NCBI GenBank assembly: GCA_963836185.1
Contig: CAWIIQ010000001.1
Location: forward strand, 1,952,001-2,016,000
Length of the DNA stretch: 64,000 nucleotides
DNA from: Candidatus Krumholzibacteriia bacterium
GTDB lineage: Bacteria; Krumholzibacteriota; Krumholzibacteriia; Krumholzibacteriales; Krumholzibacteriaceae
Direction: 5' to 3'
The position numbers and the translations under genes were made by a program. The notes beneath the pieces are model-generated. The model searched no databases. It saw nothing but the letters and a program-made list of their open reading frames with translations, and was not told the DNA's origin. This document shows, one piece after another, positions 16,939 to 38,949 of this stretch. Numbering within the stretch: the stretch's first letter is position 1; each line of letters opens with the position of its first letter.

Positions 16939-19900
16939 ATGCGCCGGATAGCACTCCTTATCCTGCTCTTTTCTATTTTCGCCGCACTGGTGCTGGCCAG
17001 GCCGTTCAATACACCTGTTATCGACGGGACCATCACGGGCGACGGCATCGACTGGGAAGCCGACGAACTTCAGGTCGACGACCCCCCTGTCGGCGCGGAC
17101 TGGGGCCCCAACCAGATCGAACAACTCTGGGTCACATACGACTCCCTCGCCCTCTATATAGGGGTCAACTACGAAGTCAGCGATAACGCGATGGTCGTCT
17201 ACATCGCCGCCGGTACAGGGACCGGAGCGCAGGACGTCAGCGGGATCGACTGGTACGCGAGAAACTTCGATTTCTCCGACGGCGTCCTGGCCGACTTCCT
17301 GATTGCGGGCTGGAACGGGAGCGATCTCGGGATAAGAAGGATCCTCGACCCGGCCACTACCGATGACATAACGAGCCTCTGCGAGAACGCCAATCTCAGG
17401 CAGAGCCCAACCGGTTTCTTCTACAACGGCGAGATAAGGATCCCCTGGGACGTGATCTACGGCAGCGATCCGGGAACGGTCCCGGCAGGGTCAGAGATCA
17501 GGATCGTCGCTGTCATCGCGGGCGGTGACGGCTGGAACGGCCCGAGTTCCGCACCGTATAATGACGGGATGGACGGCTCGGGAGCCAAGACTACACTGAT
17601 CAACATGCATACCGTGTATGTCGACATGAACGGCGACGGTATCCCCGACGCCGGCGAGGGCACGATATCCGGAGATGTACAGCTCGAAGACGCGGGCGAC
17701 CTGACGACAGTCAGCCTCCGTCGAGCTCTTCAGTGAATTCAACGACATGCGGATCGACTCTACCGCCACCGCGCCTGGCGGAGGGGCGTATATCTTCGAA
17801 AAACTGGTGGACGGCGATTACCGGGTCGAGGCATCGGCTCCCGGATACGCCAGGATCAAGCAGCCGGGCGTTATCGTCGAGGACGGCGCGAACGTGGCCG
17901 GCGTTGACATTCTTCTGACAAGGGCCGGAAAGATCACTGGTACTGTCTTATACACAGACGGCCCTGGTGTCGAAGGTATAGTCGCTGCCTATGACTCTGT
18001 GACCGGCATACTCGCCGGCGATGGAGAGAAGGATATCCCTCCCGCTGGAGGCCCCTTCGAGATCCAGGTCCCGGACGGGACCTACTACGTCATAGCCGAA
18101 GGTACGGGATACATATCCGATACACTCTCGGTAGTAATCACTGACAGCGACAGCATACATGTCGGCGACATCTCTCTCAGTTCGGTCAAGGCTACCAAGC
18201 TCGTGCTGATCGATCCTCTCGGCAGCGAGCTGGAGAGCGTCAACACAACTGTCAGCTTCCCCGACTCAGGGATCTTCTTCTACGCTTCGGCCCTGATAGA
18301 GGCGCGTGACGATCTGGACAGGCGCGACTGGTACGATGTAGACGGGTATCTGCAGCAGGTAGAGCTCCGGGCCACAAAACTGAACAACACTACGCCTCCC
18401 AGAGGGAACGTCAACTTCTATGATCCGGCCGATACGACGGAGATCACAAACCTCGCTCTTGTGGATGGCCGTGGAAACTTCCTTATCAACGATGACGCTA
18501 TAGAAGTGCTGAGAATATTCACCGAAGCACCCGCAGGCGCTGCCGATACTATCAGCGGCAGGTTCAAGTTCGGCATCAGGTCGGCTGAGCCCGAGTTCTT
18601 CGCGATCGAGATCCTCGACACGATGCTCGTCGCCGATGGTGTCGAAGAGATAACGGTATACGGAAGGCTCCTCGATGTGAGCGGCAACCCCGTACTCCTT
18701 CCTCTGGTCGGGGTAAGCTTCCTGCTCAAGGATACTTCGACCGGTGATGGAGCCTTTACAATCCCTTCAGTGGTAACCAACGCCGATGGTGAAGCGACTA
18801 CCACGATGACAGCTACTGGCGCCGGAATACTGGACGTTACCGCTGCAGTGACCTGGCAGAACAAGGAACTCGTCATCCTCGGGAAAGATGAGACAGACTT
18901 CGTGCCGGTGACGGCCCTTCCGGGACCTGCGGCAGCTATACAGCTGTCGCTGCCGGCGGACGTCGTAGGGTTCGGCGAGGATCTCGAAGTCGTGGCCCAG
19001 CTCGTCGACCAGTTCGGAAACAGCGTCTCTGAATCAGGGTACAACATCGCCTTTACCGCAGCTCCCATGGATGCGGGAACGGTAGCGCCGGAGTTCGTCG
19101 ATCTCGATGAGACAGGGCGGGGAGTCACAGTGTTCACCGCCGGCGACAGCAGGGATATCGTCAGGATATCAGCCGTCTCTACTCCTTCGCTCCCGATCAA
19201 TGACGTCTCGTTCATCATCGATCAGATAACGACCATTTCAGATCCACCGTTCCCCGAGCCCGACCCGGCCCACCAGTCCCTCGAGGCTATGGACCTGACC
19301 AAGGTACTCGTCAGCAACGACGCGGAAGCCCTGCAGTTCCAGATCCGCTTCAATACCGGGTGGGATGGCGCGCACCTGGTCCTCCTTATCGAGACAGGAA
19401 ACGACGCGGCGGGATCTACAATAGATCCGTTTGAGTTCCCCGTGACCTATGCCCATGACCTGCTGCCCGAATACGCGTTCACCTTCAAGTATTCCTCTGA
19501 CGATTACTCCGACATGAGGCGCTGGTCCGGCAGTGAATGGGAGTGGTGGGACGCGGACGGAAAGGCCTGGATCCCTACATCGGGCACCTGGGTCGAAGGC
19601 ATAAATGTGCAGGGCGACTGGACCGAAAAGGGAGCGGACTGGGTGATCTTCACCATCCCGTACGATTTTCTCGAAGGAAACATCCCTTCGACGATGCGGT
19701 TCCAGGTATACCTCACTCAGGATGCGGATGTAAAAAGGTCGGCATTCGATTCGGCGCCTCACGACTCGACGCTGAATCTCGATTTTGATCCGGACAACCC
19801 GGATATCGACTGGACGATAGCGGAGCAGAACATCGACCTGCATCACTACTCCGCCGACTACGTCATCCAGGGCGACTTCCCCCCCGCTCCTCTTCTCTCG

Positions 19901-22264
19901 AATCCGACGGCCGAGCCTGATGAAGTCGACGCGGGCGGAACCGTGACATTCACGGTCGATGTAACAGACAACGGCGGGGGGATCGGCGGCGTACTGATAG
20001 ACCTCGCTCCAATAGGCGGCTCGACGTACCAGTTCATGTACGACGATGCGACAAATGGAGACCAGGCCGCCGGCGACGGCACATACAGCTACCTTCATCT
20101 CGTCGATCCGGGGATAGCGAGCGGCCGATACGACCTGGTCGTATCGGCGAGAGACTCGATGAATATCTCCGGTATCGACTCGACCTTGTCACTTACCGTT
20201 CAGGGAACGGTCGAGCCGATACGGATACTGACCGACGAGTTGAATGACGATTTCGGCCCGAACCAGTTCGGCCGGGAGGGTCTCTATTACCTCTATCCGA
20301 CAAACCAGGTCTTCGCCAAACGGGCTTTCGATCTCGAGTCTATGACGATATTCGAGACATCGAAGATCGTCAGCGGGGAGATCATCCCCAGCCTCGCCTT
20401 CGAGGTCAAGATGGGTCAGGTCCCCGACCCGAGCCTCGAGGGGAACGCCAACTGGAACCCGCCCTACGCCGACATCAATATCCAGAAGATCGATATCATG
20501 ATCGACGCCTTCAAGGGCGGTGCGACCGAGGGGCTGCCCAACAGGCAGAACGATTTCGCAAGCTGGGACGCCTGGGATTACGCGGTCGTGATGGAGGGCT
20601 GGTACAAGGCTGTGCTTACCTCGAACAACCAGAACACCCCTTCTGCGTGGTCACAGACTGTCGCGAAGAGCGACAGGGCAATAGTACTTCTTACCGATTT
20701 CGTAAATAATACGATCACGAGTGTAGTCTCCATGGAATCCCTGGGAAATCCCACGCCTGACGATATAATGAAGTGGGACATCACGGTAGTGATGACGAGC
20801 CATGACGGGAACAGTGACGACAATAACTTCGGAGATACTCGGTGGGTAAACGCCAGCGTCAGCGAGTGGCAGATCGGAGGCGGTGACAACAGCGACCGTG
20901 ATCCGAACATAATGGACCTGATCATCTCCCCCGGAACGGGCAAGACGATCGGCAGGACCCAGAGCGAGATACTCGACTGGAAGACGGCCGAGTCCTCCGA
21001 CAGGGTCAATAACGGCCTGACGCCGTGCTACATAGACATGACGACATTCGAGGACCAGGGGCCTCCTGCCATCGACGTCGGCGAAAAGGTATCCGAAACG
21101 GTCCCGTTCCAGCCGCTCGTCAACGCGCCGCTGTATTACACGGCGATCATCGTAGACGACGACCAGGTCTCGAGATCGGTCTTCCGGTGGCGCCCCGACT
21201 CGACCTCGACGGATACCTGGTTTGAAGAGCTTCCGATGGGATACGCCGGCGGGGATATCTGGAGTGTCGACCTTCCCGTAGAGGATATGCTGCAGAACGT
21301 CATCCTCGCCCCTCTCGACAGCACGTGGAACATCGAGTTCGAGATCGAGGCTGCCGACCGCTCCGGCAACGTCACGATCACGCCGCTCCAGACGATGGAG
21401 ATCAATCTTCCGATCGAGACTTTCGTCGTAGCCGATATCGACATGAGCGAGGACTTCGAGGTAAGGGCTCCCGAGGGCACACTTATAAAGATCCCCACGA
21501 CAGCCGTACAGCAGGATGCCCTCGACGTCAGGTACAACTTCAAGCTCACATCGGAGTATGCCGATGAATATGAGCCGGAACCGCCCGGCGCGACTCCCGT
21601 TAACGTCTACAGGAAGGTCGAGTTCGAAGCTGTGTTCAGGATGGTCGAAGAAGGTGGAGATACCGTCAACGTGACTCTTCCAGTTCCTGAGTTCGAGGAC
21701 AAGATCAGCATCAGCTTCCATTACCCTGAATACAGCATCCAGAATATCGACGAGGACCTGATCGGCGTCTACGAGTATACGGCTTCGACCGGAATATGGG
21801 TCTATATAGGTGGAACGGTCAATCCCTACGGAAACCTCGTCACCGTCGATGTATCAAGGCCGGGGACCTACGCTCTCTTCTATAATCCGGAGTTCAAGTA
21901 CAGCCCGGGAGAAGTATTCTCCGGTGTCGTATTCTCGCCCAATCCCTTCTCTCCCAACGGCGACGGCCTCTACGAAGAAACCGAGATCAGCTTCTTCCTG
22001 CAGTCGGAAGCGACCGTCACGATAGAGATCTACGATATGGACGGGAACAGGAAGAGGATACTCGAGCGGAATTTCTCGATAACGGCCGAGGACACACCCG
22101 ACGCGGTGCCGAGAAGGGTGACCGGATTCACCTGGGACGGCAGGGACAACTCAGGCTACATGGTGCCGTACGGTATCTATATATTCAGGTTTACCGTGAC
22201 CTACCAGCAGGCGGCCGGACAGAGGACGATCCGGTACAATGACGCCGTGGCGGTCATCAAATAG
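16939..22264 (+). CDS. ~1770-aa secreted multidomain carbohydrate-binding surface protein (DOMON/CBM9-like, carboxypeptidase-regulatory, Big-1 Ig, choice-of-anchor X, glucodextranase-C DOMON, CHU_C/FlgD-like tail); extra A at 17713
   Basis: Signal peptide. Big-1-like LVADGVEEITVYGRLLDVSGNPV; MYDDATNGDQAAGDGTYS; glucodextranase-C-like DDFGP...YLYPTNQVF..RAFDL, WDYAVVMEGW and WQIGGG..DPNIMDL; tail FSPNPFSPNGDG...FTWDGRD..G.MVPYGIY. Confidence 0.8.
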
Positions 22265-22280
22265 GAAGGTGCCGACCCGG

Positions 22281-23153
22281 ATGAGACGGACAGTGGCGGC
22301 GATCATCATCCTCACAGCGCTCTCAGGAGCAGCAAGGGCCGATTTCCGTCATGTGCGTATGGGTCCGCGCCCCCGGGCGATGGGGTCGGCTTTCGTCGGT
22401 GTGGCCGACGATGCAAACTCGATCTACTGGAACGCCGCAGGAATGATCATGGTCGAAAAGTTCGAGCTCACCGGCTGCGGATCGAGTCTCTACGATGTCT
22501 CCGCTCTCTCAAATAACTATGTCGCCGGCGTCTACAATTTCAACAGCCGCATCGCCGTCGGCGCCAGCTGGACGAGGCTTGAGCTCAAGGACCTCTACCA
22601 CGAAGATACGATCAACCTCGGGATCGCGGCTGCGATCCCCCGCTTCGATGATTTCTCGTTCGGAGCTGCCCTGAAGATCTTCACTCTCGGCGCCCCCGGA
22701 TACGAGAAGTACAACGACCCGGCATATGAGGGTAGCGTCAACAAGGCGAGCCTTGATCTCGGTCTTTACTATCACTCCCCTAGCCAGGTGTGGTCGGCGG
22801 GATTCGTCGTATACAACGTCAACGAGCCTGGCCTTCAACTACTGACGACGACCAGCACTCCCGATCCGGTCTACCGGGACTTCGCCCTCGGCGCGAGCTA
22901 CATGTTCAGCGGACTGCTTCTCGTCTCGTACGACATCAAGACAAGATATGGAGAATTTGACAATATCATCGGGCGGCTGGGCAGCGAGATCTGGTTCTTC
23001 GACGTGGTCGCCCTGCGCGGCGGATTCGAGAGGGAAAACCTTTCCGCCGGATTCGGGCTCAAGGGCAAAAGGTGGGAGATCGACCTGGCGCTCGAGACAC
23101 ATTACGACCTTGGCAACTCTTACCTGTTCGGGCTTACTATAATGCTCCCGTGA
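22281..23153 (+). CDS. PorV/PorQ-like (FadL-fold) outer-membrane beta-barrel
   Basis: GPRPRAMGSAFVGVADDANSIYWNAAG is the N-terminal PorV/FadL signature. Signal peptide starts at ATG 22281. Confidence 0.8.
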   Translation: MRRTVAAIIILTALSGAARADFRHVRMGPRPRAMGSAFVGVADDANSIYWNAAGMIMVEKFELTGCGSSLYDVSALSNNYVAGVYNFNSRIAVGASWTRLELKDLYHEDTINLGIAAAIPRFDDFSFGAALKIFTLGAPGYEKYNDPAYEGSVNKASLDLGLYYHSPSQVWSAGFVVYNVNEPGLQLLTTTSTPDPVYRDFALGASYMFSGLLLVSYDIKTRYGEFDNIIGRLGSEIWFFDVVALRGGFERENLSAGFGLKGKRWEIDLALETHYDLGNSYLFGLTIMLP

Positions 23154-23172
23154 TGAGGGAGCGGGTAAAACG

Positions 23173-24780
23173 ATGGCGATGATGAAAAGGATATCGATCA
23201 TCACTCTCATATCGGCAGCCGTGCTCTCGGCCGCGGCGCCGTCATCTGCCGTCAACAAGCTCGAAGGGTTTTACGAGGTCGAAGCCTCCTTCCAGCGCCA
23301 GCAGAAGATCTGGCGATTCGGGCCTCCAGGCGGCGAAGGGATGCCCAGGCACTATCTCGAGCTTAAGTGGCTCAGCTGGCCTTCGGACAAGCTCGAGATG
23401 TACTACAAGCTCCGCGCCCAGTCTAACCGGGACGACGGCCTGACCCAGGAAGTCGAGTACAAGCGGCCCGAATACCTGTCAGCCGAAGGCCACATAAAGC
23501 TTCACGGCGATCTCTGGGAGACATACATCTTCGCCAGGGAGAACAGGTTCTGGATCAATGACGATCCCCTCCTCAAACTTGTCGACCAGAACAAGCTTAA
23601 GAACGACAACTGGGGGCCGCAGTCGAGCGGGATCAGGGCCGATTTCTGGAACAGCAATGTCGGTCCGGTACACGGCCTTAACGGAACGCTTATCTACAGT
23701 GATGACGGCGGAACATATAACTGGTCGGACGATCAAACAGAGACGGTTGCCAACGGCACGGATAACTTTATCGCGAGACTCCAGAAGAACTCGTTCAACA
23801 GCAGGCTCGAGATCGGCGCGATGTTCCTGAGGAAGGACTGGACCAACACAAGCGCGGACCGGCAGTACACGAACCTCCAATACAACCAGGTCGGGGCGAT
23901 CGACGTCTCCTTCTACCCGAGGGATTTTGTTTCCACCGGCCTCTCACTTGGCCCCGTTAACCTCGAGAATACGAGCTGGATCGTCCAGTACGCACTCAGC
24001 GACGATCCCTACGTGATAGAAACGAGCGATATCAGAACGGATGAGAACAAGTACGCATTCTCTGCCGAAATAAGAAATATCCGGATAAGAGATTTCACAT
24101 TCCACACCTGGTACAACGATTTCGGAGAGAATTTCAGGGACTATATGTCTTACAGGTTCGATGATGCCCGCGAATACAACCGTGAGCAGGTTCACGCCGA
24201 GGCGATCTTCCAGGTACCTAAAAAAGCTGTCACGGCTACTCTCTCGTACGACTATTACCAGAAGAAGATCGTAGACGAGGAAGGCGGAGGCCTGCGTCCG
24301 ACTACAAACTGGTACGGCGACATCTACATCGAGTTTATAAAAGGATTCAAGGCGAGACTCGCCTACCAGAGCTGGCACGGGTTCGACGCTTCGGGCGAGG
24401 TATATGATTTCACTACATATCCGAACTGGTACGCCGACCTCTCCGTCGAGAACAGGCTCGTCAAGGTCAGGGTCCAGGGAAGGATCAGGGACTGGAACAC
24501 CTTCAGGCAGGTGTGGGCATTCGGTTACGACATGGAATTCAACGCGACGGGAAAACTGAAGGGTTACTTCAGGATACTCAATGTAAACGAGCAGACCGAG
24601 GCACGCTCCACCCTCTTCGCGCAGATAAGATACGATATCGGGTACGGCGCCGAATTTTTCCTCGAGTACGGCAACGGCGGACAGAGCGAGCACCTCGTCA
24701 GAACGGACTATTTCGTCAACGAGGGCAGCAGTGACAGGCTCGATCATGTGCTCAAGGCATTTATGAAGCTTTATTTCTGA
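23173..24780 (+). CDS. Putative outer-membrane beta-barrel protein, unknown family
   Basis: Signal peptide, Tyr/Trp/Phe-rich amphipathic strands, BAM-type C-terminal signal KAFMKLYF. Confidence 0.65.
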   Translation: MAMMKRISIITLISAAVLSAAAPSSAVNKLEGFYEVEASFQRQQKIWRFGPPGGEGMPRHYLELKWLSWPSDKLEMYYKLRAQSNRDDGLTQEVEYKRPEYLSAEGHIKLHGDLWETYIFARENRFWINDDPLLKLVDQNKLKNDNWGPQSSGIRADFWNSNVGPVHGLNGTLIYSDDGGTYNWSDDQTETVANGTDNFIARLQKNSFNSRLEIGAMFLRKDWTNTSADRQYTNLQYNQVGAIDVSFYPRDFVSTGLSLGPVNLENTSWIVQYALSDDPYVIETSDIRTDENKYAFSAEIRNIRIRDFTFHTWYNDFGENFRDYMSYRFDDAREYNREQVHAEAIFQVPKKAVTATLSYDYYQKKIVDEEGGGLRPTTNWYGDIYIEFIKGFKARLAYQSWHGFDASGEVYDFTTYPNWYADLSVENRLVKVRVQGRIRDWNTFRQVWAFGYDMEFNATGKLKGYFRILNVNEQTEARSTLFAQIRYDIGYGAEFFLEYGNGGQSEHLVRTDYFVNEGSSDRLDHVLKAFMKLYF

Positions 24781-24783
24781 TAG

Positions 24784-26964
24784 ATGAGAGAGGAAACGAT
24801 GTTTCCAGTATTCGCAGCAAGGAGACTGACAGTGAAGACAATCGAAAGGCGCGGCCCCGGTATCACCGGATCCGGCAGGTGCGCGCGTGATCGAAGGACC
24901 GCATCGGGGAGGAACAAGACCTTCACGGCTATTGCGTCGGTGGCGGCATCGCTTCTGGTAATGCTGATGCTGCTGTCGGCGATATCCGGTCCGGCCCTGG
25001 CGTCCGTTGAAAAGGGTGACGGCGGAACGAAGTTCTCCTACAACGATCCCGAAGCGGGAGCCGTCTTCCTCGCCGGTACGTTCAACGGATGGAACGCCAC
25101 ATCACACCCGATGGAAAAGCTCAAGTCGGGGACGTGGGTCATCACTGTCGAGCTGGGGCCTGGAACGCACGACTACAAGTTCGTCGTCGACGGGGCCTGG
25201 ATCACAGACTTCGAGAACCCATCAAGCGCCCCTGATCCATATGGCGGGGTGAACTCGATCGTAACGCTCGATAACGAGGGCAATATCCTGGTCGATGCAG
25301 GCAGTGAGGAAAAGAAGATCGCCAACACCGCTTTCAGCCCGAGGGTAAATTTCAACGGCTTCTTCCTCTTCCGCGCGCCGATATACAAGAACTTCGACGG
25401 CGACGATCGCTGGAGGATGTTCAGGCCTGAGTACGGTTTCGACCTCAACTCGATCATAACGATCAACGAGCAGGTCGAAGGATACGCGAGACTGAGGGTA
25501 GATTCCCCCAGCAACCTCGCTAATGTAAACGCCGTATCTGCCTGGCTCAACGAGGCGCATATCAAGATCACGCCTCCCGGGATCATGGACCTTAACGGTT
25601 ACTACAACATGGAGGTCCTCTGGTCCGAAGATCCCCTGACACTTTTTGGCGATGAGGATCTCGAGGGAACGATATTCGACGATCATCTCAAGATAGGAAA
25701 AGGAACCGCCGGCATCGTCTTCAACAGCGACTGGCCGAAATTCGAGTTCAGGTCTTTCGCGGCAAACACGCATGACGATGATATCTACAACGATCCCGAC
25801 CTGTACGATAACACTGGTACGGACCAGGTGACCCTCCGCGGCTCGCGAAGGTTCGGATGGTTCAGGCCGGGGATCGACTACTTCCTCGAACAGAACATCT
25901 GGTGGCTTGACATGACCGACAGGATCGGAAGCACACCGTCGAATACGGGCATCCCGCGGCTCGATGAATATATAGACGCAAGCGGGGACCCGAGCGACTG
26001 GTATGAGTTCCAGGGGAAAACGTGGTATGTCGGCATCGACGCCTACCTTTATTTCCTCGACGACAAGTTTGTTCCCGGCATACAGTACATGCGCGGTGAA
26101 GCTGGACAGGGATTCGTGACGAGCAACAGCTCAGGGCTCGATTTCGAGAACGGCCCTATCGACGTACCCATAGCGGACAGGGATGCCACGATATATCACG
26201 TGGAAATGCCTTTCAGGGGCATTGAGAACCTTTTCCTTAACGCCGAGTACAATCGCCGCGAACTTCTCGGAGTGGATTCCGACGAATCCCTTATCACGCC
26301 CGTATTCCTCCCCAATGACGAAGCTAACAAGCAGATCTATTTCGACGTCGACCAGAACCCTCCCGCGTACACCCGTGATTACGGCGAGTTCGAGGCAAGA
26401 TGGACTAAGGACGGCCTCGACGCAAGGCTCTGGGTAGAGCGTGAGATGGAAAAGTATGACCGTGCGGACGAGGATCTCAGCGCTTACCAGTACAGGCTGT
26501 CCGTTTCTCCTGGAATCAAGCTAACCCTCTGGGATGCTTTTGATCTCGGGTTCGAAGGGAAGTTCTCCAATCTCGACGGCTCGAAAGAATTCGATATGGA
26601 CGGCAACACCTACGAAGGGATATTCAGGGGAGCCTGGTGGTTGACAAGCAAGTTTGCCTTCATGTGCGATGTAAGGATAATCAATTACTCGCTCGATGAG
26701 ACCGAGACTCGGGGAGACTTCAGCGATACCTTCTATAATCCTTTCGTGGGATTCGAGTACCGCTTCCTCAAAAAGGTAAACCTCGTCTTCGCATACGGCG
26801 TCGATCCTGTCACCTTCGACAGGGATTACGGCGGAAGGCAGACTGGAAGATGGGACTTCAGACAGGCCTACATGTGGGAGAACCCGGACGCCACGACGGT
26901 AGACGCGGAAAACGCTCTTAACGATGTTCAGGCATTCACACTCAGAGCGACATTCCGCTTCTAG
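24784..26964 (+). CDS. CBM48/AMPK-type glycogen-binding domain fused to a putative outer-membrane beta-barrel
   Basis: After the signal: AVFLAGTFNGWN...LGPGTHDYKFVVDGAWITD..NP...PDPYGGVNS. Then about 500 aa of barrel-like strands ending LRATFRF. The exact start codon is uncertain. Confidence 0.75.
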   Translation: MREETMFPVFAARRLTVKTIERRGPGITGSGRCARDRRTASGRNKTFTAIASVAASLLVMLMLLSAISGPALASVEKGDGGTKFSYNDPEAGAVFLAGTFNGWNATSHPMEKLKSGTWVITVELGPGTHDYKFVVDGAWITDFENPSSAPDPYGGVNSIVTLDNEGNILVDAGSEEKKIANTAFSPRVNFNGFFLFRAPIYKNFDGDDRWRMFRPEYGFDLNSIITINEQVEGYARLRVDSPSNLANVNAVSAWLNEAHIKITPPGIMDLNGYYNMEVLWSEDPLTLFGDEDLEGTIFDDHLKIGKGTAGIVFNSDWPKFEFRSFAANTHDDDIYNDPDLYDNTGTDQVTLRGSRRFGWFRPGIDYFLEQNIWWLDMTDRIGSTPSNTGIPRLDEYIDASGDPSDWYEFQGKTWYVGIDAYLYFLDDKFVPGIQYMRGEAGQGFVTSNSSGLDFENGPIDVPIADRDATIYHVEMPFRGIENLFLNAEYNRRELLGVDSDESLITPVFLPNDEANKQIYFDVDQNPPAYTRDYGEFEARWTKDGLDARLWVEREMEKYDRADEDLSAYQYRLSVSPGIKLTLWDAFDLGFEGKFSNLDGSKEFDMDGNTYEGIFRGAWWLTSKFAFMCDVRIINYSLDETETRGDFSDTFYNPFVGFEYRFLKKVNLVFAYGVDPVTFDRDYGGRQTGRWDFRQAYMWENPDATTVDAENALNDVQAFTLRATFRF

Positions 26965-27478: not shown

Positions 27479-30400
27479 CTACTGCAGGACCAGTATCGCG
27501 CCTGAGAGCTGTTCGATTCCTATATCGAGAACTCCGCCTGTGACTGTGTAGCTCCCGCCTCCTAGTTTGTCGACCAGCGTCGCTCCATCGGCGAATCCGA
27601 ACCCTCCGAGATCTAGCTTTACCGTCGCCTTCGCGCCGCTGTTGTTCAGGGCTACGACGATCCTGTTCGCTTCGTCTTCCCTGATGAAGGAGTAGAGTTT
27701 GCCGTCGGCCAGTACCGTCTGGAAAGTACCGGTTCGCAGAGCGGGATACTCTTTCCTGATCCCAATGACCTTGCGATAGAAATCATGTACCTTTACTCGC
27801 CTGGGGCTCTCTTCCCAGTTCCACGGGAAGGTGCGCCTGCAGTCGGGGTCCTTGCCGCCTCTCATACCCACCTCGTCTCCGTAGTAGATCTGCGGGAATA
27901 CCGACGTAAGTCATCTGGAAGAGTGTCGCGAGCATCAGCCTCTCCGACTTGTTACCGGCGGTCGTCAGGAAGCGCTCCGTGTCATGGCTGTCGACCAGGT
28001 TCATCATCACCTGTGTCGCCTGGAGAGGATAGAGAGAACGTCCGGGAGCGAGCTCGTTGTCGAGCTGAGCCGCCGAGCCATGTCCCTGAGCGAAGAACTT
28101 CAGAACGGGGTCGCGGAAATACTTGTAGTTCATCGTCGAATGGAAGCCGTGAGGACCCATCCACGGCATCGCGTTCCCCCATATCTCACCGATCAGGAAG
28201 GCGTCAGGCTTGACCTCGTCGACTACCGTGCGGAACTCCTTCCAGAACCAGAAGGGGACCTCGTTCGGAACATCGAGCCTGAAGCCGTCGATGTCGAGTT
28301 CGCCGAGCCAGTATCTCGCTACCTCCCTGAGGTACTCGACGAGGGGCTCGTTCACCTTCGCCTCGCTGATATCGGTTATCGCGTTCTCCTGGGCATTGGG
28401 CCTCGAGAGATCGAAGTTGAGGTTGGGGTGGATACCGAATCCCCACCAGCAGTCGTAATAGTCGAGGGGGTTGGGAATATCTCCCTCGGGAAGGGGCCAG
28501 CGCTTGAACTCGTACCAGTTCCAGTATTCCGACTCGCGTCCCTTCTCGACCGCGTCGAGGAAGGCGAAGAAATAGTTGCCCGTATGGTTGAATGCCTTAT
28601 CGACGATGATTCGGATACCGTTATCGTGGGCCTTCTTGACGAACTCCTTGAAGGTCGCCTCATCGGCGAAGTGCGGATCGAGCTTCTTGTAGTCCATCGG
28701 GTCGTACTTGTGATTCGACCTCGCTTCGTTGAGAGGGTTGAAATAGATGATCGTCACGCCGAGGTCAGCGAGGTAAGGTATCTTCTCCATGACGCCGGCT
28801 ATGTCACCGCCGTAGAACGAGTAGTAGTCCGGCTTGCCGTCTGTCCTGTAAGGGCTGCGGGTAAGGCCGCTCACATCGTACCAGTTCTGAACGAAGTGGA
28901 AATACTCGCCGTTGGTCTGGCCCGACTCGGGAAGCTCGGTCACATCCTTATAGTAGAACTCCTTGAAATCCGGGTCGTTCGACTTGTCGCCGTTGGCGAA
29001 ACGTTCTGGGAATATCTGGTAGAAGACTCCATCCTTGGCCCAGTCAGGTGTAAAGAAGGGAGGAACTTTCTCTGAATCGTAATGGAACATCTCTCCTTCA
29101 GCCTGCCTCTCCCCCACGAAACCCTTAGGGGTGGCGAAGAAGAGCTCACCGCCGTCGGCGAAGACGAACATAAAAGAGACCTTCTTGCTGGCAGGGACCT
29201 CGAGGACATGCCTGTAGTACTGGAAGACGACGTCCTCGCCATATGGAGTCATCTCTACGATATCCTCAGCCCCATCGACTACGTAGAGCATCTGAACGGT
29301 CTCTACATCGCCCAGGTGCGCACGGGTCTTGAACTCTATGGCGTTCTCCGAGAGCGGGTTGACCATCGAATAGTCCATAACGAGGGAAATATCCTTGTTC
29401 ATCATCTCGCCGTCGCCCAGTTCGGTCTTTATATCGTCGTAACGGTCATCGACGACGATGACCGAGTTCTTTCCGCCGAATCCATCGTCCTCGAAATCAT
29501 CGGCCCCTTCATCGGTCATCCAGTTCCCGTCGACGACGAACTTATACTGGTGCCTGCCTACGGGAAGCATCAGCGTGGCCTCGTAGGCGCCGTCGCCGTC
29601 ATCGTCGGTCATCCTCGTCTTTGAATCGTTCCAGTCATTGAACGTACCTGCGAGGAATATATTGGTCACGCCGCTGATCACCGGCTGGAACCTGAAGGTG
29701 ACCTCCTTCATCCCCTGCCCAGCCGCAGCCGCGCCGGCTCCGGCAGCACCCGCCGCGGCGGGCACTACACCCTCGATCCCGTCGGGGACCTTCGAGTACA
29801 TACCGACTATCATCGGTGTGCCGGCCACCACGGTTAGGACCGAGTTCTGTCCCCCGAAACCGTCATCGACGAAACTGGCAGCGTTCTCGTCTGTAAGCCA
29901 GTTGCCGTTATCGACGAACTTGTAGTGGTACTCTCCCGGCGCCATATTCTTGACGAGGACATGGATCCCGTCTCCGTCATCATCGCTCATCATCTCGGCG
30001 GTCGGGTCCCAGCCGTTGAACGAGCCTGCCACGAATACCTGTGAGGTCTTGCCCTCCCCTACCTCGAAGAGGAATGTGACCCTGACTTCGCCTCCAGACG
30101 CGGGCTCTGCCGCAGGTTTCGCGGCAGTTTTCGCGGCGACCGCCCCTCCACCCGCGGCGATTCCGACGACCAGCGCTTTCCCGTCGGCAGGAACGTCGAC
30201 TACCGAATTCTTGCCGCCATATCCGTCGTCAGTCTCTGCCGCCGCTGCGGGGTCGGCCTGCCAGCTGCCATCGACGACGAACTTATACTGGTACTGGCCC
30301 GGCGCCAGTTTCAGCGTCATCTCATAAATACCGTCCTTGTCGTCATCCTTCATCAGGTCCTTGTCGGAGCTCCAACTGTTGAACGAGCCGGCGAGGTAGA

Positions 30401-30521
30401 CCGCTCCAGGCGACCCGCCGGGCTGAAAGGTGAATGTCACCTCGGCATCGGCGGCGCTGACGGCGGAGGCGGATAACACAAAGGCCAGAAGCAGTATAAT
30501 CGTATTGAAAGAACGGAACAT
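27479..30521 (-). CDS. GH13 neopullulanase/cyclomaltodextrinase-like alpha-amylase with signal peptide and three tandem CBM48 modules (frameshift ~27892)
   Basis: FYQIFPERFANGD, GGDIAGV and SNHKYD; conserved regions DKAFNH, GFRLDV, GEIW and LVDSHD; C-terminal GGKDPDCRRTFPW. Three LAG(S/T)FNxW...YKFV(V)DG repeats. Confidence 0.92.
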
Positions 30522-30577
30522 GACTCTCCTCCAGTCTGAGTTTCATTGAATAGAATGCGGATTCATGTGACATGGGG

Positions 30578-30606
30578 ATTATCGGCTATAAATTTGTCTG
30601 ATTCAA
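30578..30606 (-). promoter_or_regulatory. Candidate sigma70 promoter of the GH13 gene
   Basis: Minus strand TTGAAT, 17-bp spacer, GATAAT, in an AT-rich stretch about 55 bp upstream of the ATG. Confidence 0.4.
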
Positions 30607-30735
30607 GTTAAAAGGATTATTAAGGAGAATCCTCTCGAACTGATGTGGGCTCCCGGGGTGGTAAATTTCCCACCGCCACCGGTGGCGGTAAAAATCCTGC
30701 CACTTCGGGAGAATCCAGATCATAGCATATATATC

Positions 30736-30777
30736 AAAAGACCCGGCCGAAGAGCCTTAGAGCTCAACGGCCGGGTC
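30736..30777 (-). terminator. Intrinsic terminator
   Basis: Minus strand GACCCGGCCG...CGGCCGGGTC followed by TTTT. Confidence 0.8.
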
Positions 30778-30811
30778 ACAGTCGATCAAGACTGCTTAAT
30801 GGAACTGCGTC

Positions 30812-33241
30812 CTACCTCAGAAGGATCATCTTACGGCTCATCTCGAGATCTCCTACCATGAGACGGTAGAAGTAGACTCCGCTCGATATCTGCCTTCCGT
30901 GCATGTCCGTCGCGTCCCACGTGACACTGACTTCACCCGCGGCTACTACGTCGTCGACGAGCGTCTGAACGAGCTCACCCTTGACGTTGTAGACGTTCAG
31001 GACGGCCCTGCCCCTCTCCGGCACGCTGAATGTGATCGTCGTGACTGGGTTGAAGGGATTGGGGAAGTTCTGCTTGAGAGCGAACGGGATCGTCGGGGTC
31101 TCCTCGGTTACATCGATCCAGCACGTGTTGAAATATGCCAGGTCGAGTATCTGTGGACTCCCCAGATCGTCGTACGCCTCGTCGAGATAGAAGCTCCTGT
31201 TCGCCTGCGTGGAGCACTCGTATGTAGAGTTCATCAGGTACTTGAACTCTACGAACTTGCCTGACGAGTCGGGGAAAATAATCGATGTCGCGTAGATACC
31301 GTCGCCCGCTGTATCGTCCGGCCCGGTCCCGTCATCGGCCATAGGATTGATCGAGGGGATCGCCCAGCTGAGCACGAGCGGAAGCTGGTTGTTCTCGTTG
31401 CCGTTTACCGCGATCGTATCGCCCGCTCCCGGCTTGACCCACCTCGTGTCGACCTTGAAGACGACCTCGATCGCTTTTCCGATCGTGCTGCAGCGATCGT
31501 AGTACTGCAGGGGCATCACGATCGGGCCCATTGTTCCGCCTATCGTATCGAACTCGGCGTCGTTGAGCCATACGTTCCTGTCGCCCTCGAGCTGACACTC
31601 GTAAACGTCGTTATAGACATACTTGTACCCGACGTTCTTCGGAGAAAGGGGACCGAACCTGACAACGAGGGAATAGATGCCGTCAGCTGCCGTGGCATCG
31701 GGATAGATCCCGTCGTCGGCCATCTCGTTGAGAGAGGGTACGTCGAAGCTCAGCGGCGCGGCGTTTCCGTTAATCGCCATGATGCTGTCGAGAGTCGCGC
31801 CGTAAGTGTTGGCATCGACTGTAAAGACCACGTCGATGGCGTGGGCGGTAAAGCTGCCCGCGTCCTCATCGTGCCACCAGTACTCGAGTGTATCCCACGG
31901 GCTGTCATCAGTGATCAGGTGGGTCCTGTTCGCTGCGAAGGGCTCGTACTCCGAGCACTGGTGCGCGAACTTCCACTCGAGGGTGGTGTCTGGCTACTAC
32001 CCACGAAGATCCCTGCTCTTCTCCGAGAAGGGAGAACGAGGCATAGCCCACATAGATGCTGTCGCTGTTGTCTGCAAGGAACATGTTGTCACAGAGCCCG
32101 AATGTCAGCGGAGCGAGGCTGCCCTCCACGGTAAAGGTATCGACCGCCGGAGCGACCGAATGCTGCCTCATGTGAAGGCCCATAAAACCCTTCCACATCA
32201 GGCCCTTGTAGAAGAACGCACCCATGTTTGTCAGGCCGACTGGATCGTGGACGATCGGGTTGCCCGCGAGATCCTCCACGTTGGAGACGATGACGGAATA
32301 GCTGGCATATGCAGGTGATATCGAGGCATCGAGCTGGATAGTCACCCTGTCGGGGAATGTCGCGTTCCTCGTCACGCTCGTGATACTCGCAGAGGTACCA
32401 CTGATCGAATAGTTAGTTGTCGTCTCAGCGGTTGTCTCGTCTACAGGTTCGCTGAACTTAACGACGAGAAGATCGGTGCTGAGGTCCCCGCTCGCCTGGC
32501 CCTGTTTGCCCTCGGCGTAAAAAGCGTCTACTGTCGGGGCGATATTGTCCGCCGACGACTGGATGATATACATGAACATCGAGTCGAGTTCGACAGGTGC
32601 CGTACGTCCATACCGTGGGGCCGCCTGCTACGCTGAGCTGGTCATCGTCCCCCGCCATCAGGTCCAGGGGACCCTTGGTCGATCCGTCCTGTGTCGAGAT
32701 CACCTCGAAGTAGATCGTATCGCCCGGAGCCAGCCCCAGGTCGCTGAGGTTGAGGCCGAACTCCTCGAATCCTGTGTTGTTGACCCAGCCAAGCGAGCCT
32801 GTTCCGGCATAGACAGCCGGGTCCCAGGTTGAACCGGTGTCGTCCCAGTGCCTCAGCTCCTGCCACAAGTTGTCCAGGTTGACGTACGCGTAGAAATCCG
32901 GTTTGTGAGGAGCGTTCGTCCAGGCTATCGCCCGTCCCCACGGATCGGTTGTGCCTCCAGGTTCGCCCGTCGAGATGGCGATCCCGACCTGGTTGGTCGT
33001 CCAGCTGCCCTTGTCATACTTAATACCGAAATATAAGCTTGTTCGTGTCGTTCGTCACGAAGATCGAGTCGAGGTCGAGCTCGGCGAACTCAGTATCGCC
33101 GCCGTCCGCGTCGATGAGATTACCAACGAGGAAATCGTTTGCCCCGTCGACGACGATCGTCTGCGGAGTCGCCGCCAGGACCAGTCCAGCCATGACGAGC
33201 GCCGCGAGAAACATGAATCCGAGATGTTTTCTATAATTCAT
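30812..33241 (-). CDS. Secreted non-catalytic protein: DOMON-like, SbsA/Big-5 Ig, three CBM20-like repeats (two with choice-of-anchor X) and FlgD/T9SS type-A tail (multiple frameshifts)
   Basis: Fragments 33020-33241, 32458-32868, 31908-32579 and 30812-31831. Motifs VKFSEPVDETTAETTTNY, MADDG..PD..A.DGIY (twice), EFKY...YEC...NR, and tail KQNFPNPFNP...SRKMILLR. Confidence 0.72.
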
Positions 33242-33294
33242 CTCTTTCCGCCTCCTCCTTTCAAGAGTCCCTTGACCCTGCTGAAACTCGTCTC

Positions 33295-36200
33295 TTATCT
33301 CAATAGCACCATCTTGCGTGTCTGGAGCTGCTCACCCGTTATCATCCTGAGAAAATATATCCCCGAGGATACCGCGATCCCGTTCTCGCTCATCCCGTCC
33401 CAGGTCACTTCCGCCGGACCGGCCGGCATCGAACTGTCGACCAGTCTCTTTACCAGGCTGCCGCGGACATCGTAGATGTTTATCACTACCCTCGCGCTTG
33501 TCGAGCCGCTCCCCTCTGCCCTGCCCGGCACGTCGAATCTTATCACAGTCGAAGGGTTGAACGGGTTGGGGAAATTCTGGTAGAGACGGGCAGGGTACTT
33601 GACGGTCCTGCCGTCATCCCCGGTGGTCGAACCGCGGATCATGAAGGTGCTGCCCGGAATTATCTCGTTCCTGTAGCACGAAACATCCGTCACGCCGCTG
33701 ACTGAGACAGAGTATCCGTAATCGATATCGTACCCCAGTGCGAGCTGGACGGTCTTGCCGTCGGGCTGGAGTGTCGCGGAAAGTACCGGCACCGTGTTGG
33801 ACGGGACCGATGGTCTGGTAGACAGTGTAGTTGGCGACATTCTCCGCGCCCTGTCTCCTCGACTTCCTCACTGAACAGTACGTTCACAAGGCTGTCGGCG
33901 GCAGCGTCCCTGCTCGCATATTCGATGAGTCGGGGATACGAGATCGTCCGCCTCGTCGGGAACGCCGTCGCTGTTGCCGTCGACCGTGAATGTATACACA
34001 TTATCGATCGTCGGAAGAAGGGCCGATATATTGTTTGGCGCCGAATCCCCGCCGAGCTCGCCGTCAGGCTCGGGATCCCAGCAGATCGAGGCCACTATCG
34101 ATATCGAGGCGCCGGCCGGTACGGTGTTGTGCCCGAGTCCGAAGAGGATATCCCACGGGATAGCCAGCTCGCTCCCGCCGAGGTCCCCGTTGATGTGCTG
34201 CGAATCGAAATCTGAGAATATCGAATCAGACAGCGATGCCGTGGTCGTGGCGCTCTCTATCCTCTCGAACGAGTCCCCGTCGTACTGACCCTGGTGCTGG
34301 TAGCAGCCGTACTGGAAGTCGGCCCTGAAACCGGAGGCTGTGAAGGCCGCGCCCCTCTCCCAGCTGTCGATCGCCGTAAGGTCGGTCTGGCCGTTCGGGC
34401 CGCCCGGATCGGTGTCGAAGTAGATCAGCCAGCTGTTGCCGGTGACTACACCGTCGAGTGCCACGTAGAGGTATGTCGAATCCCACGTGACATAGAGTGC
34501 GTCGATCTCGTTCGCCGCGGTCCACTCCGAGTCGTTCGAATCGGCGACGGCCATGCGGCATTCGTTCCATTCATCAGTATCGATAAAGCCGTCGATCGTC
34601 ACCATGGTCTCGGGTCCGTAATAGACGGGGATGTCATCCACGCTGGTAATCGCGTTGTTAGGATTACCGTTCATATCGAATGCCGTGGAGGATGCCATCA
34701 TCAGCTCCATCGCACCGGTATCGAGCGCCTCCAGGGCGGCAGCGTCCGGGGAGGTCAACTGCAGCGTCAGCTGGAAAGAGCTCAGAAGTCTCGATGACCG
34801 TCAGTCCCCGACGAAAGGGTCAGCTCGGGGATACCGTCATCGTCATCATCGATCGAGACACCAGTCACGACGAACGTCGAATGATCGGTCACCTGGTTGA
34901 ACTCTAGCTTGAGCTTGTCAGAACCCGGGAAGTATGTCGCGGATAACGGAGCGGGGCCGATCGTATCGGCCAGTCCCGCAAGGGCACGCAACTCGGCTAT
35001 CTCGCCGGTGCCGTCCGGCGCGCTTGTCGTTCCCGCGTAGAAAAGGAATTCGAAGACTCCGCTGCCGTAGAACTCGTCGCCCTTCATGATCCTGCCGGAG
35101 AAATCGAAGTTGTGCGATGTCCCCGCCTGTCCGGCGATGATCGCGGCGGTAGCGCCATTGTTCGGGTTGCGCTGGCCGTAGTAGGCTGTGTCACTTACCC
35201 AGACGCGGTCCATCTGCGCGTTCCAGAGCAGATCAACAAGCCCCGGGGAGTATCCGTTCTTGATATACTGCGTCGTGCGTCCGACCTCGTAAATAACGTC
35301 AAGGTAAGGCTGTCCGGCTGTCAGCTTGACCAGCTTGCGAACTCCCTGGTGGGTCATCTCGACCTCGACGGTCGTGCCTGTAGGCTGGATGATCGTCATG
35401 TCGTACTGGTTGTGCTGGTAGTCGGGTCCGACGTCGCTGAGCAGGCCGACATGGTTGACGTCGTTGTAGTCGCCCTCCGTTCCGGCCCAGTACGCGACGT
35501 CCACACCGATGACGGAAAAGTCGTAGCCGGGACCCTTGGCGAATAGGTTCGTCGCCCGGCCGCCCGTACCCTCGAATACGGCGAAGAGGCGGTCGTTGTG
35601 CATGACGAGCTCGTTCCATCCGTCGTTGTCCATGTCGGCGAAGTACGCTCCCGTAGTGGCGGCATACTCGCCGTTCGCCCAGTGCGCCGCCTCGGCGTAC
35701 ATGTTCGTGTTCTTGATATGGCCCGAATAGAGGAGCTGCCAGCCGCTTATATCCCCGCCGAGGCCGTCGTGCCAGCCGGTCTCATGGAGGTTCATCATCA
35801 GCGTGTACCAGCCGCCCTGCGAGATGTTGTTGTCAGGTGCGGACAGGAGGGCGTTGTACGCGTCGTTCCATATCGTTCCGTGGTCCTTGCAGTTGCCTCC
35901 GCGGCCCGCGTCGCAGAGCCCGCTGCCGTCGCCGCCGGAGGAATACGGGATATACCCCGCGTAGTGTGTGTACCAGCCGTTGTTCCCGCCGCCGTACCCG
36001 GCGGTCCCGCCGATCTCGGTATATGTGCCGTATGTGACGTTGAATGATGAACTGCCGTTGAAGTTCGGGTTGGTCACCGCGTCGGCGACTTTCCATACCG
36101 AGATCCAGGCGCTTTCCTCTGAGCATTTGCCTATGAACCAGTCGTAGGTCTCCTTGGCGTTCGGGGTCGAGGTCGCCCAGCTCCCCATCTCGGCGGCAGC

Positions 36201-37584
36201 TTCCCAGTCCTCGGCGTACAGGGCGATGCGGTAGTCCCCAAACCCAGAGTTGTGAAGGTCGGTCAGTATCTGCAGGGCCGCCGCACCGTTTCCGCCGACG
36301 ATGTTCCCGGTGAAGCTGCGGTCCCGCGGGATGACCTTCAAGGTGCTCCCGCTGAACTGGTGTATCTGGTGATTATCGTAGCCCTGGCAGTGAACATCGT
36401 CATCGAGGATGACTGCCCAGATGCCATGACTCTCCCAGTTGTCGATCAGGTTGTCGATCACCCCCGCATCGGGATAGGCGCCCGGATCGAGCCATACCCT
36501 CTCCGGAACCCATGCGACGCGCGGGTAATATCCGTATCTCGTATTGGTCATCTGAGTCTGGACATTGACGGCCCAGTCGTTCATCGAGTTATGAACGAAC
36601 GGCATCATGTGCTGGCCCCATGCCGAGCTGACCATCCCGGCCCAGCCAGCCGTGACGCCCGAGGCGAGCCACGCGTTGAAATCGCCGGGATCGCCGTTGT
36701 TCGCGTCCCACTCGGCCGAGGTCTGAAGCGGTCCGCAGAGATGGAAGTTTCCGGGGATCGATGTCGCCTCGTGGACCTGGAGCTGCCTCGTCGAAACCGC
36801 TGCCCTCGGGATCGTCGTACCTGCCCCAGAAGACATCGCTGTATGCGAGCCCCTGGTTCCCGTGATGGACGAAAGCGCAGTTGGCGCCTGGCGACAGCGG
36901 AGACATCGAGTCGGCGGAGAGCCTGTCGACCACCTTCCCGCCTGATACCGAGATCACCTCGAATGTGACCGGAGTCCCTGACGGGGCCGACGGCAATTTC
37001 GATGCTCGCAACGCGGCGTCAGAGAACGACCGCGAGACAGCGACCGCTCCCTCGAGATACTCCCCCTTGTGATTTACCAGCGCCCTGGTGAGAACCGGGG
37101 CAGGGCCTGCCAGATCAGTGGCGAACGACAACGCCCTTGAAGCTGTGTCCTTTGAAAGGGGAGAGAGGACGACCGCCTCGTCCCAGTCTATCGACGCGGA
37201 ACCTGGAAGTCCCGCCGGAAGGGTGGATCCTCCACCGTCCTGGTAATCTATCAGGACGATGATCCCGGGCTCATCCCTGCTGAAGAGGTCCACTCCGCCG
37301 GCAGGATCTATCATGCGCGCCATGCTGACCCTGAAGACGAGCTCCTCTCCCGCCTCGTGGAAATAGAAGGCGAGGATATCGGCTCCTTCGGATCCCGAGG
37401 GTACGTCGAGGACGTCGTCCACTGCCCTGACGTGATCACGCCCCCAGCTGAACAGTGGCAGGCCCTCGGAACTGCCGAGCAGATCGACAGTGGCCGGGTT
37501 CCGTGCTGCGGGTGCCGGACCGGAGAGCAGAAAGAGTATTACTGGTACAGCGAGAAGACAGGTGATAGGTGACCTGGGACTCAT
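33295..37584 (-). CDS. Secreted GH57 glycoside hydrolase (4-alpha-glucanotransferase/amylopullulanase-like) with DOMON-like and Ig domains and FlgD/T9SS type-A tail (frameshifted)
   Basis: Signal peptide; FVHHGNQ, HLCGPL, WVPERVW (nucleophile) and YAEDWE (acid/base); DUF1926-like DMDNDGWNELV...GGR; tail YQNFPNPFNP...TRKMVLLR. Fragments 36589-37584, 34782-36836, 33868-34758, 33690-34001 and 33295-33840. Confidence 0.8.
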
Positions 37585-37747
37585 CGTTCCTCCAGACAGG
37601 CTCTGCCGGGCCCGGCGCTCAGCTTCGCTTCGGGCACGTCGATGTCAAAAAGGCGGTCCGGATGCAGGATAGTCCACCGGAAGCTGCAAGCCGCCGGCAA
37701 CACTTCCGGCCGCCTCAAAAACTCGCATCAAAACGTGTTAAAAACAG

Positions 37748-37791
37748 AAAAGGGGATATCTTCAGCCGGTAATTGACAGAAGATATCCCCT
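37748..37791 (-). terminator. Intrinsic terminator
   Basis: Inverted repeat AGGGGATATCTTC...GAAGATATCCCCT with a T tail on the minus strand. Confidence 0.8.
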
Positions 37792-37808
37792 CGACGATCA
37801 GTGTGACC

Positions 37809-38657
37809 CTAGTTATGGATCTTCTTGATCGCACCCCATGTCGACTCTTCTGTGCCTATTCCGCACAGAGGACAGTCGTCCCCTACGTAATTGTTCCAGT
37901 GGTCAACCCACGGAATAATGTAGACAGGACCGGAATCGTCGATGGTGACCATTCTGTTACCACCCGGCTCCCAGTCAACACAGTCATGAATCTTGTACTT
38001 CCACTCGATAGCAGGATTGCCGCCTGAAGCAAAGAGAATACCGACCTCGTAATAGAGCGGGCTGGCTCCCAGACAGGGCTGAACCATGGGAACACCGGCG
38101 CCCCAGGCTGTCAGCTCAGCAGCACTTCCTACTACACACACGCCGCCGGGAGCGGGGTCATAGCTCTCGTCTCCCTCCGGGGGCAGGCAGATTCGGAAAT
38201 ATACCATCACGTCCTGGCCGAGGGCCGCGGTGATGTTGAGCTTGAACGGAGGATCGTTGCTGTTCTGGTCCTGGGCACTGGCGGTCGAGCCGTCGGTCCC
38301 GTCATAGACTTCGCAGTAGAACCAGATCTCCGAGTTGCCCTCGAGAGCGGCAGCGGGGATATCTCCCTTGTACTCGTCATTGTTTCCTACGTCACCCCAG
38401 TAGCCCATCGCTACTTCAGTGTAAGGGCCGCCGAACGGGCCATAGAAAAGACTCGCGGAGAGTGAGTCACCCTGTCCCTCGGCGTCGGTGAAGCCTTCCT
38501 TCCAGATCTGGACGTAGACTCCGACGTCAGCGCCCTCGGTCACGGTATAATCGTGAGTGGGCCATACGTTCCCGGACCAGCCGACTGCCGCCATGGAGGC
38601 ACCTGAAAGGGCCATCAAGACTGTAGCGGCTACGATGCACGTTAGCACCTTTTTCAT
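37809..38657 (-). CDS. Secreted protein with a CBM20-like starch-binding domain and C-terminal TWGAIK motif
   Basis: Signal peptide; VGNNDEY motif; CBM20-like VCVVGSAAELTAW...IEWKY...WEPGGNR; ends GTEESTWGAIKKIHN. RBS AAGGAGG. Confidence 0.75.
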   Translation of the reverse strand: MKKVLTCIVAATVLMALSGASMAAVGWSGNVWPTHDYTVTEGADVGVYVQIWKEGFTDAEGQGDSLSASLFYGPFGGPYTEVAMGYWGDVGNNDEYKGDIPAAALEGNSEIWFYCEVYDGTDGSTASAQDQNSNDPPFKLNITAALGQDVMVYFRICLPPEGDESYDPAPGGVCVVGSAAELTAWGAGVPMVQPCLGASPLYYEVGILFASGGNPAIEWKYKIHDCVDWEPGGNRMVTIDDSGPVYIIPWVDHWNNYVGDDCPLCGIGTEESTWGAIKKIHN

Positions 38658-38767
38658 ATTGTCCTCCTTCGGCAGATGCCGATAAGACTAACAACTGAAA
38701 GTGAATTTATTAAATGCACTGCTCCGAAAACCCTCATGAAATTTCAGAGGGAATTCAGTCAAGCCAT

Positions 38768-38796
38768 ATTGTACCATAAAGTTGCGCAAAAGTCAA
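38768..38796 (-). promoter_or_regulatory. Strong sigma70 promoter of the leftward alpha-glucan arm
   Basis: Minus strand TTGACT (38791-38796), 17-bp spacer, extended -10 TGG-TACAAT (38768-38776). Palindrome TTGCGCAA lies in the spacer. Confidence 0.7.
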
Positions 38797-38949
38797 TTGG
38801 AAAGAATCATTCTTGATTAGCATGCATCATAGCTGATCTGTTCTTTTGATGGAATTGAGGGCCCGTTCGGCTGTAAAATCAAATATGGACCCCGTCAATC
38901 ACTTATAGCAGTGTCAGTTCCACATTCTCTCTGACAATGGAGGAATACT

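Follow-up and report, generated by a model that had tools for sequence, protein, structure and literature searches.

Layout of the locus and its exported proteins

The window analyzed here, a stretch of 64,000 nucleotides from Candidatus Krumholzibacteriia bacterium (assembly GCA_963836185.1, contig CAWIIQ010000001.1, forward-strand positions 1,952,001 to 2,016,000; host genome 3.5 Mb, 92.5% complete), harbors at 16939-38657 nine genes, termed A–I, in two convergent arms: A–E on the forward strand (16939-27402, hereafter the cassette) and F–I on the reverse strand (27479-38657). This layout, obtained from the open reading frame (ORF) map and from comparison with a same-genus genome (G001, the reference for gene count and frame breaks), agrees with an earlier annotation made from the letters of the window alone (the sequence-only reading), as does the presence of an N-terminal signal peptide or lipobox, called by eye, in all nine proteins. 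Judged from the sequence, the locus very probably serves the utilization of alpha-glucans (starch/glycogen). An Rfam scan of the window returned no match.

In the host assembly, four genes are interrupted by seven frame breaks: one in A (near 17714), one in F (near 27850-27895), three in G, and two in H. Each of these genes is a single ORF in G001, where all nine are intact (76–94% identity), and unrelated genes of the same assembly (SprA, a second cassette described below, and neighboring ORFs in the window) are equally broken; hence, the breaks, taken for frameshifts already in the sequence-only reading, are probably assembly errors. The view of the locus as a decaying, non-functional remnant in this genome can draw on the same breaks and on the genes of a MalEFG-like ATP-binding cassette (ABC) importer, since malE and malF-malG lie apart from the locus and from each other. 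Given the breaks in unrelated genes, the identity of the broken pieces to intact counterparts, and the displacement of the ABC genes also in two relatives with intact genes (G003, G021), this view is highly improbable, and such decay would concern this assembly alone, not the system.

Gene A (16939-22264, +; ~1770 amino acids, aa) encodes a predicted surface protein with a signal peptide, an unclassified N-terminal domain shared with H (its profile matched nothing in the PDB), immunoglobulin (Ig), carboxypeptidase-regulatory and Big_1 domains, and a DOMON-like Glucodextran_C domain, in keeping with the DOMON and Ig assignments made before. It ends in a type-B-like C-terminal secretion domain with the motif FSPNGDG, present once in the genome versus 91 occurrences of PNPFNP; A homologues match CHU_C weakly (E 2e-6 to 0.03). 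Gene B (22281-23153, +), a small PorV/PorP-like barrel of 290 aa (PorV_fam, E 1e-18, below the cut-off; PorP_fam, E 2e-4), lies directly downstream of A in all 20 loci fetched from the phylum, which were hand-picked for long contigs and framed around known matches. SprA, PorU, and several PorV-family genes are present in the host genome; a search of the genome for GldM gave no match, and neither did its control.

In Bacteroidota, type B cargo of type IX secretion needs a cognate PorP/SprF shuttle encoded directly downstream (PMC12618676) and may remain anchored to this shuttle (PMC9143113). From the tail type of A, the position of B directly downstream, the analogy with these pairs, and the SprA, PorU, and PorV genes of the host, it follows that B is likely a type IX shuttle or anchor dedicated to A. 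As in type B pairs, the cargo gene is followed by a PorV/PorP-like barrel, and the tail of the cargo resembles CHU_C; unlike in them, B scores higher as PorV_fam than as PorP_fam (below both cut-offs), the host belongs outside Bacteroidota, and two large barrels accompany the pair. The PorV-like label given to B in the sequence-only reading can be kept, but not the role of an import barrel: B as a sugar pore was rejected on its secretion-shuttle family and gene position.

On the opposite strand, F (27479-30521, −) combines a signal peptide with three CBM48 domains and a GH13 domain, as had been proposed. Its motifs RLDVPNE, GEIW, and SHDTER align with alpha-amylase II (1jf5, E 1e-100), with Asp-Glu-Asp intact, and an Alpha-amylase_N match is present, so the protein has the features of neopullulanase/cyclomaltodextrinase-type GH13. 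F is likely periplasmic, since it bears a signal peptide and no secretion tail; the earlier proposal of secretion-tagged outer proteins and a periplasmic GH13 is supported.

The enzyme encoded by H (33295-37584, −; ~1420 aa, predicted to be secreted, with a type-A-like tail) had been called a secreted GH57. No Pfam GH57 match above the cut-off was found for it (E 0.04 for the G001 orthologue); 20 of the 22 members of its family match PF03065 weakly (E up to 0.1, best 5e-6), and the only PDB match of the family profile is 1k1w, a Thermococcus 4-alpha-glucanotransferase (E 7e-7). A Glu conserved in at least 90% of the sequences aligns with Glu123 of 1k1w, and the start of the following domain aligns as well; a conserved Asp (EDWE), the candidate acid/base, is located outside the aligned stretch. 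The Glu is presumably the nucleophile, these roles being taken over from GH57. According to the alignments, H is a distant relative of GH57: it is very distant from 1k1w, shows HGNQG as its first motif, and is secreted with additional domains. Since the 1k1w enzyme can cyclize glucans, a variant of the system resembling Cym (see below) was considered.

Two further secreted enzymes with secretion tails are encoded elsewhere in the genome, a GH57 from another subfamily (G000:C4:135000-137800) and a GH13 (G000:C1:1537030-1539519); their homologues adjoin the cassette in other genomes.

The two remaining proteins of this arm are putative glucan binders. G (30812-33242, −; ~808 aa, secreted, non-catalytic) comprises Big_5, two choice-of-anchor-X repeats, and a type-A-like tail. 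Its repeats had been assigned to CBM20, and this call is weak: CBM_20 (PF00686) was matched in two of ten homologues (best E 0.007), and the repeat profile had no PDB match below E 1.9. For I (37809-38657, −; 282 aa, exported), the CBM20-like domain fares better (E 0.002; two of three scanned homologues pass the cut-off), though less well than formerly stated. I ends in a short TWGAIK motif; short tails of the [ST]WGxIK type close 28 ORFs genome-wide, including gene I (window 37809-37841), and are possibly short sorting signals.

Barrels C and D and lipoprotein E

The center of the cassette is formed by two large predicted outer-membrane barrels: C (23173-24780, +), a plug-less protein of 535 aa with ~24 strands, and D (24784-26964, +), in which an N-terminal CBM48 is fused to a barrel of ~22 strands (both numbers counted from predicted secondary-structure lists). 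Neither C nor the C-terminal 540 aa of D matched a Pfam or NCBIfam family, and the C profile found no match in the PDB. In the AlphaFold2 models (predicted local distance difference test, pLDDT, 91.5 for C and 74.6 for D), C is the barrel alone (residues 27-535), and the CBM48 is the sole additional domain of D.

With Foldseek, generic large barrels only were retrieved (TM-score up to 0.49 for C, ~10% identity). In a wide structural search with C (VIA-align), an usher pore came first (Z 16.4, root-mean-square deviation (rmsd) 6.3, 370 aligned residues, 8% identity), and ushers occupied ranks 1–4 (Z 14.8–16.4, rmsd 4.4–6.3, 363–388 aligned, 8–9% identity). LamB does not figure in the 50 matches listed for C, which is not counted as evidence. 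At the level of the model, this match fits the strand number and is not close: C shares ~24 strands with ushers, but lacks the internal plug, the periplasmic N- and C-terminal domains, and a family match. The earlier claim that the barrels are neither SusC nor LamB is thus upheld by structure and family searches. No SusC/TonB plug or TonB barrel family was matched by C or D in Pfam/NCBIfam; membership in SusC or LamB was rejected for want of a family match and because the predicted strand numbers exceed that of LamB, which has 18 strands.

The fold of D was compared by Foldseek only, with TonB-dependent receptors on top. A remodeled TonB-dependent transporter, in which the CBM48 replaces the plug, TonB supplies the energy, and A acts as a SusD-like lid, would be compatible with these matches and with ~22 strands plus an N-terminal domain. 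At the same time, the TM-scores against generic barrels are only 0.29–0.41 at ~10% identity, Plug and TonB barrel families are absent from the family matches, D is profile-related to C, which has no N-terminal domain, and no tonB/exbBD were seen among the nine genes; this transporter is, therefore, quite unlikely. The profile match between C and D (hhalign, probability 64%, E 6e-5, over the first third) is weak and suggests, at the sequence level, that the two are distant paralogues stemming from an old duplication.

In the model of C, conserved residues face the predicted lumen, among them many charged ones and about eleven aromatics; they would suit a sugar channel no better and no worse than a partner-binding surface. 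CBM48 matches above the cut-off were obtained for D, E, and F, confirming the earlier assignments; D conserves the Trp/Lys residues that we take to be the binding site of its CBM48. E (26983-27402, +), a CBM48 lipoprotein with the lipobox VSGC, has a conserved tether, R-L-P-x-P, after the lipobox cysteine in 58 aligned sequences. A pore of 24 strands that lacks a plug of its own would have to be closed in some way, so E or the CBM48 of D may act as the putative plug of C, an attractive idea. In other loci, CBM48 is fused to a ParA-type ATPase (L044:8282-9562) or ends a probably split glycoside-hydrolase-like gene (L043:9149-11831).

Distribution of the cassette and linkage to alpha-glucan genes

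Within the phylum, 171 genomes of at least 80% completeness were searched at author-chosen E-value thresholds; related genomes are not independent samples. C was detected in 64 of them, and orthologues of F (E up to 1e-100) and of H (E up to 1e-8) in 62 each. C occurs together with F in 61 genomes (C only in 3, F only in 1, neither in 106) and with H in 56 (C only in 8, H only in 6). The presence of C is patchy, amounting to 9 of 34 genomes in the host family, 3 of 6 in the host genus, and 40 of 70 in another family; thus, C and the starch genes are gained and lost together, with the reservation that kin are not independent. The co-occurrence of the barrels with GH13 and GH57 and the link to alpha-glucans, both put forward in the sequence-only reading, are, in this way, borne out, the latter also by synteny.

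The MalEFG-like importer follows the same pattern. Orthologues of MalF turned up in 68 genomes, and after six weaker ones (45–49% identity) were dropped, 61 of 62 were C genomes; the orthologue is present in 61 of the 64 C genomes. C and F are at most 9.4 kb apart in 40 of 42 same-contig cases, and C and malF at most 12 kb in 40 of 44. The order A-B-C-D-E is kept, as in the window, in all 20 fetched phylum loci, all with malE and malF, although in three of them D was matched by its CBM48 only. In the host, malE (C1:1943424-1944656) and malF-malG (C1:1929115-1930846) are located 24 and ~40 kb upstream of A and, as in many relatives, point away from it; probably, insertions pulled the locus apart from the ABC genes. 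The best NCBIfam matches for the importer are MalE and MalF, below the cut-off, and a MalK-type ATPase gave one match just under the cut-off (C1:1893615). By homology and linkage, the importer belongs to the system and is encoded inside the locus in most relatives.

The malF-malG and malE-like genes of the host are separated by ~12.5 kb of inserted genes; a second malE copy (C5:11287-12442, 93–95% identical, same neighbors) is a strain variant or a duplication.

Family searches (Pfam/NCBIfam) revealed no plug, TonB barrel, SusD, LamB, or MalE in the locus, as the sequence-only reading had it. For SusD (PF07980) and LamB (PF02264), the negative extends to the whole 92.5% complete genome (controls positive), which leaves the ABC importer there without a known counterpart in the outer membrane; for MalE, it does not, given the malE-like gene upstream.

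Beyond the phylum, the C profile search yielded 123 clusters at 50% identity, one of them named from Elusimicrobiota; the nearest Atlas clusters are mostly from Eisenbacteria and Cloacimonadota. The named homologues of C and of D belong to Krumholzibacteriota and to genomes labelled Latescibacterota, and a single-protein scan of named genomes with the D barrel had no match. In two C homologues (P0200 and P0230, one of them from Elusimicrobiota), an additional domain of ~170 aa is present at the N-terminus.

In the named-genome scan, 35 of 79 candidate stretches were confirmed: 10 from WOR-3, 1 from Hydrothermota, 10 from Eisenbacteria, 3 Gemmatimonadota-labelled, and 11 others. C-D-E is found in 28 of these loci, including loci of WOR-3 and Eisenbacteria, and C-D in 3. 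Together with a metagenome locus (L100, ordered malF-malG-malE-A-B-C-D-E), the loci number 36, and at 20 of them a mal-like ABC, GH13, or GH57-like gene is a neighbor, some queries of this neighbor search being drawn from the same loci. In L065, ABC genes, C-D-E, CBM48-GH13, an H homologue, and an alpha-glucan phosphorylase (above the cut-off) form one run.

Putative maltodextrin route and comparison with known systems

The proteins can be arranged into a tentative pathway. The type IX-like system of the host would carry A, G, and H out of the cell; A would be held at the surface on B and, with G and I, bind the polysaccharide. H, with its GH57 homology, would cut or rearrange the latter into oligomers, which would diffuse through C and/or D independently of TonB. 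On the periplasmic side, the CBM48 domains of D and E would catch the oligomers, and one of them may plug or gate the pore; F, with its family assignment and catalytic motifs, would trim the oligomers in the presumed periplasmic location, and the MalE/F/G homologues linked to the cassette would move the products across the inner membrane. C and D are, with reasonable confidence, proposed to be a passive outer-membrane conduit for maltodextrins feeding an otherwise ordinary maltodextrin pathway.

Several observations weigh against this conduit. C stands alone in 4 of the 35 non-phylum loci, and 16 of the 36 have no mal, GH13, or GH57 neighbor in the fetched flank (some contigs are short). Four TonB-dependent receptors (PF00593), encoded elsewhere in the genome and none of them in the locus, offer an alternative entry for maltodextrins, and the best fold match of C is an export pore. 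Above all, a second cassette, B'-C'-D'-E'-E'', is located next to ppdK (~C1:1274800-1280030; L042:6797-12031) with neither a hydrolase nor A beside it. A paralogous B-C-D-E-E cassette was found in every one of the 43 further genomes sampled from the order, and F in only 10 of them; hence, the barrels as a family do not depend on starch degradation and have at least one role without starch enzymes. It is mainly on account of this enzyme-free cassette that the conduit is not proposed more firmly. The second cassette is a distant branch in a FastTree phylogeny (computed with long-branch warnings and used for that point only), and both cassettes keep CBM48 on D and E. Its retention by the whole order points to a second function; it may take up small alpha-glucosides or have a part in display or export.

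The last option can be extended to the locus itself: C and D could be a display or export platform, for instance one that docks type IX cargo or lets a surface glucan out, recruited to hold A and the enzymes, with sugars entering elsewhere. The fixation of the enzyme-free cassette in the order, often with a giant Ig-repeat protein behind it, the 24-strand usher export pores among the top structural matches of C, and a cassette beginning with a secretion cargo and its shuttle all speak for such a platform. It is, however, judged unlikely, given the looseness of the usher match (see the values above), the absence of usher plug, chaperone, or pilin domains from the Pfam/NCBIfam scans, the CBM48 kept in both cassettes, and the nearly one-to-one tracking of the main cassette with the ABC importer.

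Upstream of the second cassette, ppdK is accompanied by probable CDP-alcohol phosphatidyltransferase-like and DUF4388-like genes (named by eye); directly after it, a protein of more than 2500 aa with at least 16 near-identical Big_1 repeats is encoded (L042:12403-20000).

The proposed maltodextrin pathway combines features of three known systems. Like the enterobacterial maltose system (LamB, MalS, MalEFGK), as presented in PMC13543919 and PMC10223318, it has a passive outer step, a periplasmic GH13, and a MalEFG-type importer; unlike it, it has no LamB and relies on two larger barrels, fused or lipid-anchored CBM48, and type IX-secreted surface proteins. With the Cym system of Klebsiella oxytoca (cyclodextrin glucanotransferase, CymA, CymE, ABC; PMC10458862), it shares a secreted glucan-modifying enzyme, a passive barrel, an ABC importer, and a cyclomaltodextrinase-type GH13. 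In contrast to Cym, the secreted enzyme is GH57-like, the GH13 has a signal peptide, and the barrels of C and D exceed 500 aa, whereas CymA, which has an N-terminal plug segment, is small (312 aa; Z 10.9 against the C model over 244 residues, rmsd 10). The Sus system of Bacteroides (SusC/SusD/SusEFG) resembles the locus in that binders at the surface are clustered with an outer enzyme, a barrel in the outer membrane, and an amylase in the periplasm; SusC is described as a plugged 22-strand TonB-dependent barrel (PMC13543919), while here there is neither plug nor SusD, the proteins at the surface are cargo of a secretion system instead of lipoproteins, and an ABC importer takes the inner step. 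The "third architecture" announced in the sequence-only reading, next to SusC/D and LamB/MalE, was not sustained: the passive cyclodextrin channel CymA is already another (PMC10458862), and the same cassette type occurs without hydrolases.

No description of the cassette was found in the open-access literature, which was covered as main texts, so a mention in a metagenome-assembled genome paper or a supplement may be missed. A 2026 review of glycoside transporters contains no mention of CBM48 or Krumholzibacter; one Krumholzibacteriota paper reports on the topic only that, in its bin, starch/glycogen hydrolases outnumbered all others (PMC10936416). Overall, the locus is a real, conserved alpha-glucan utilization locus, the outer-membrane module of which is an apparently undescribed two-barrel family and possibly a new class of transporter. 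A bolder version can be put forward tentatively, at somewhat less than even chances: B-C-D-E(-A) would represent an undescribed class of outer-membrane glycan gates in at least four uncultured phyla, i.e., a TonB-independent complex of two barrels with 24 and 22 strands, in which CBM48 acts as plug or gate, with a type IX-anchored binder as a lid and pores wide enough for long, branched, or large-ring glucans, possibly made by the GH57-like transferase and opened by the cyclomaltodextrinase-type enzyme.

Glycan use in diderm bacteria is mostly predicted from SusC/D or known porins, by which these phyla are scored as having no outer-membrane uptake route. If C and D are indeed a conduit, they would provide a marker for the scavenging of starch/glycogen in Krumholzibacteriota, Eisenbacteria, and WOR-3, offer structural biology a new family of passive channels of very large size, and exemplify, outside Bacteroidota, the coupling of type IX secretion to sugar uptake.

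In genome G040, the cassette is adjoined by a 900 aa ORF (L034:8685-11387) with what, by eye, resembles an intein with a homing endonuclease. An exported protein with many degenerate, Met/Glu-rich repeats of 12 residues is encoded in two further loci (L041:17891-19858 and L045:117-2080). In the window, the locus is flanked by a serpin gene with a lipoprotein-like N-terminus, divergent from gene I (38950-40164, +), and, just upstream of A, by two class I methyltransferase genes with export-like N-termini (14781-15665, −, apparently frame-broken, and 15819-16772, +).

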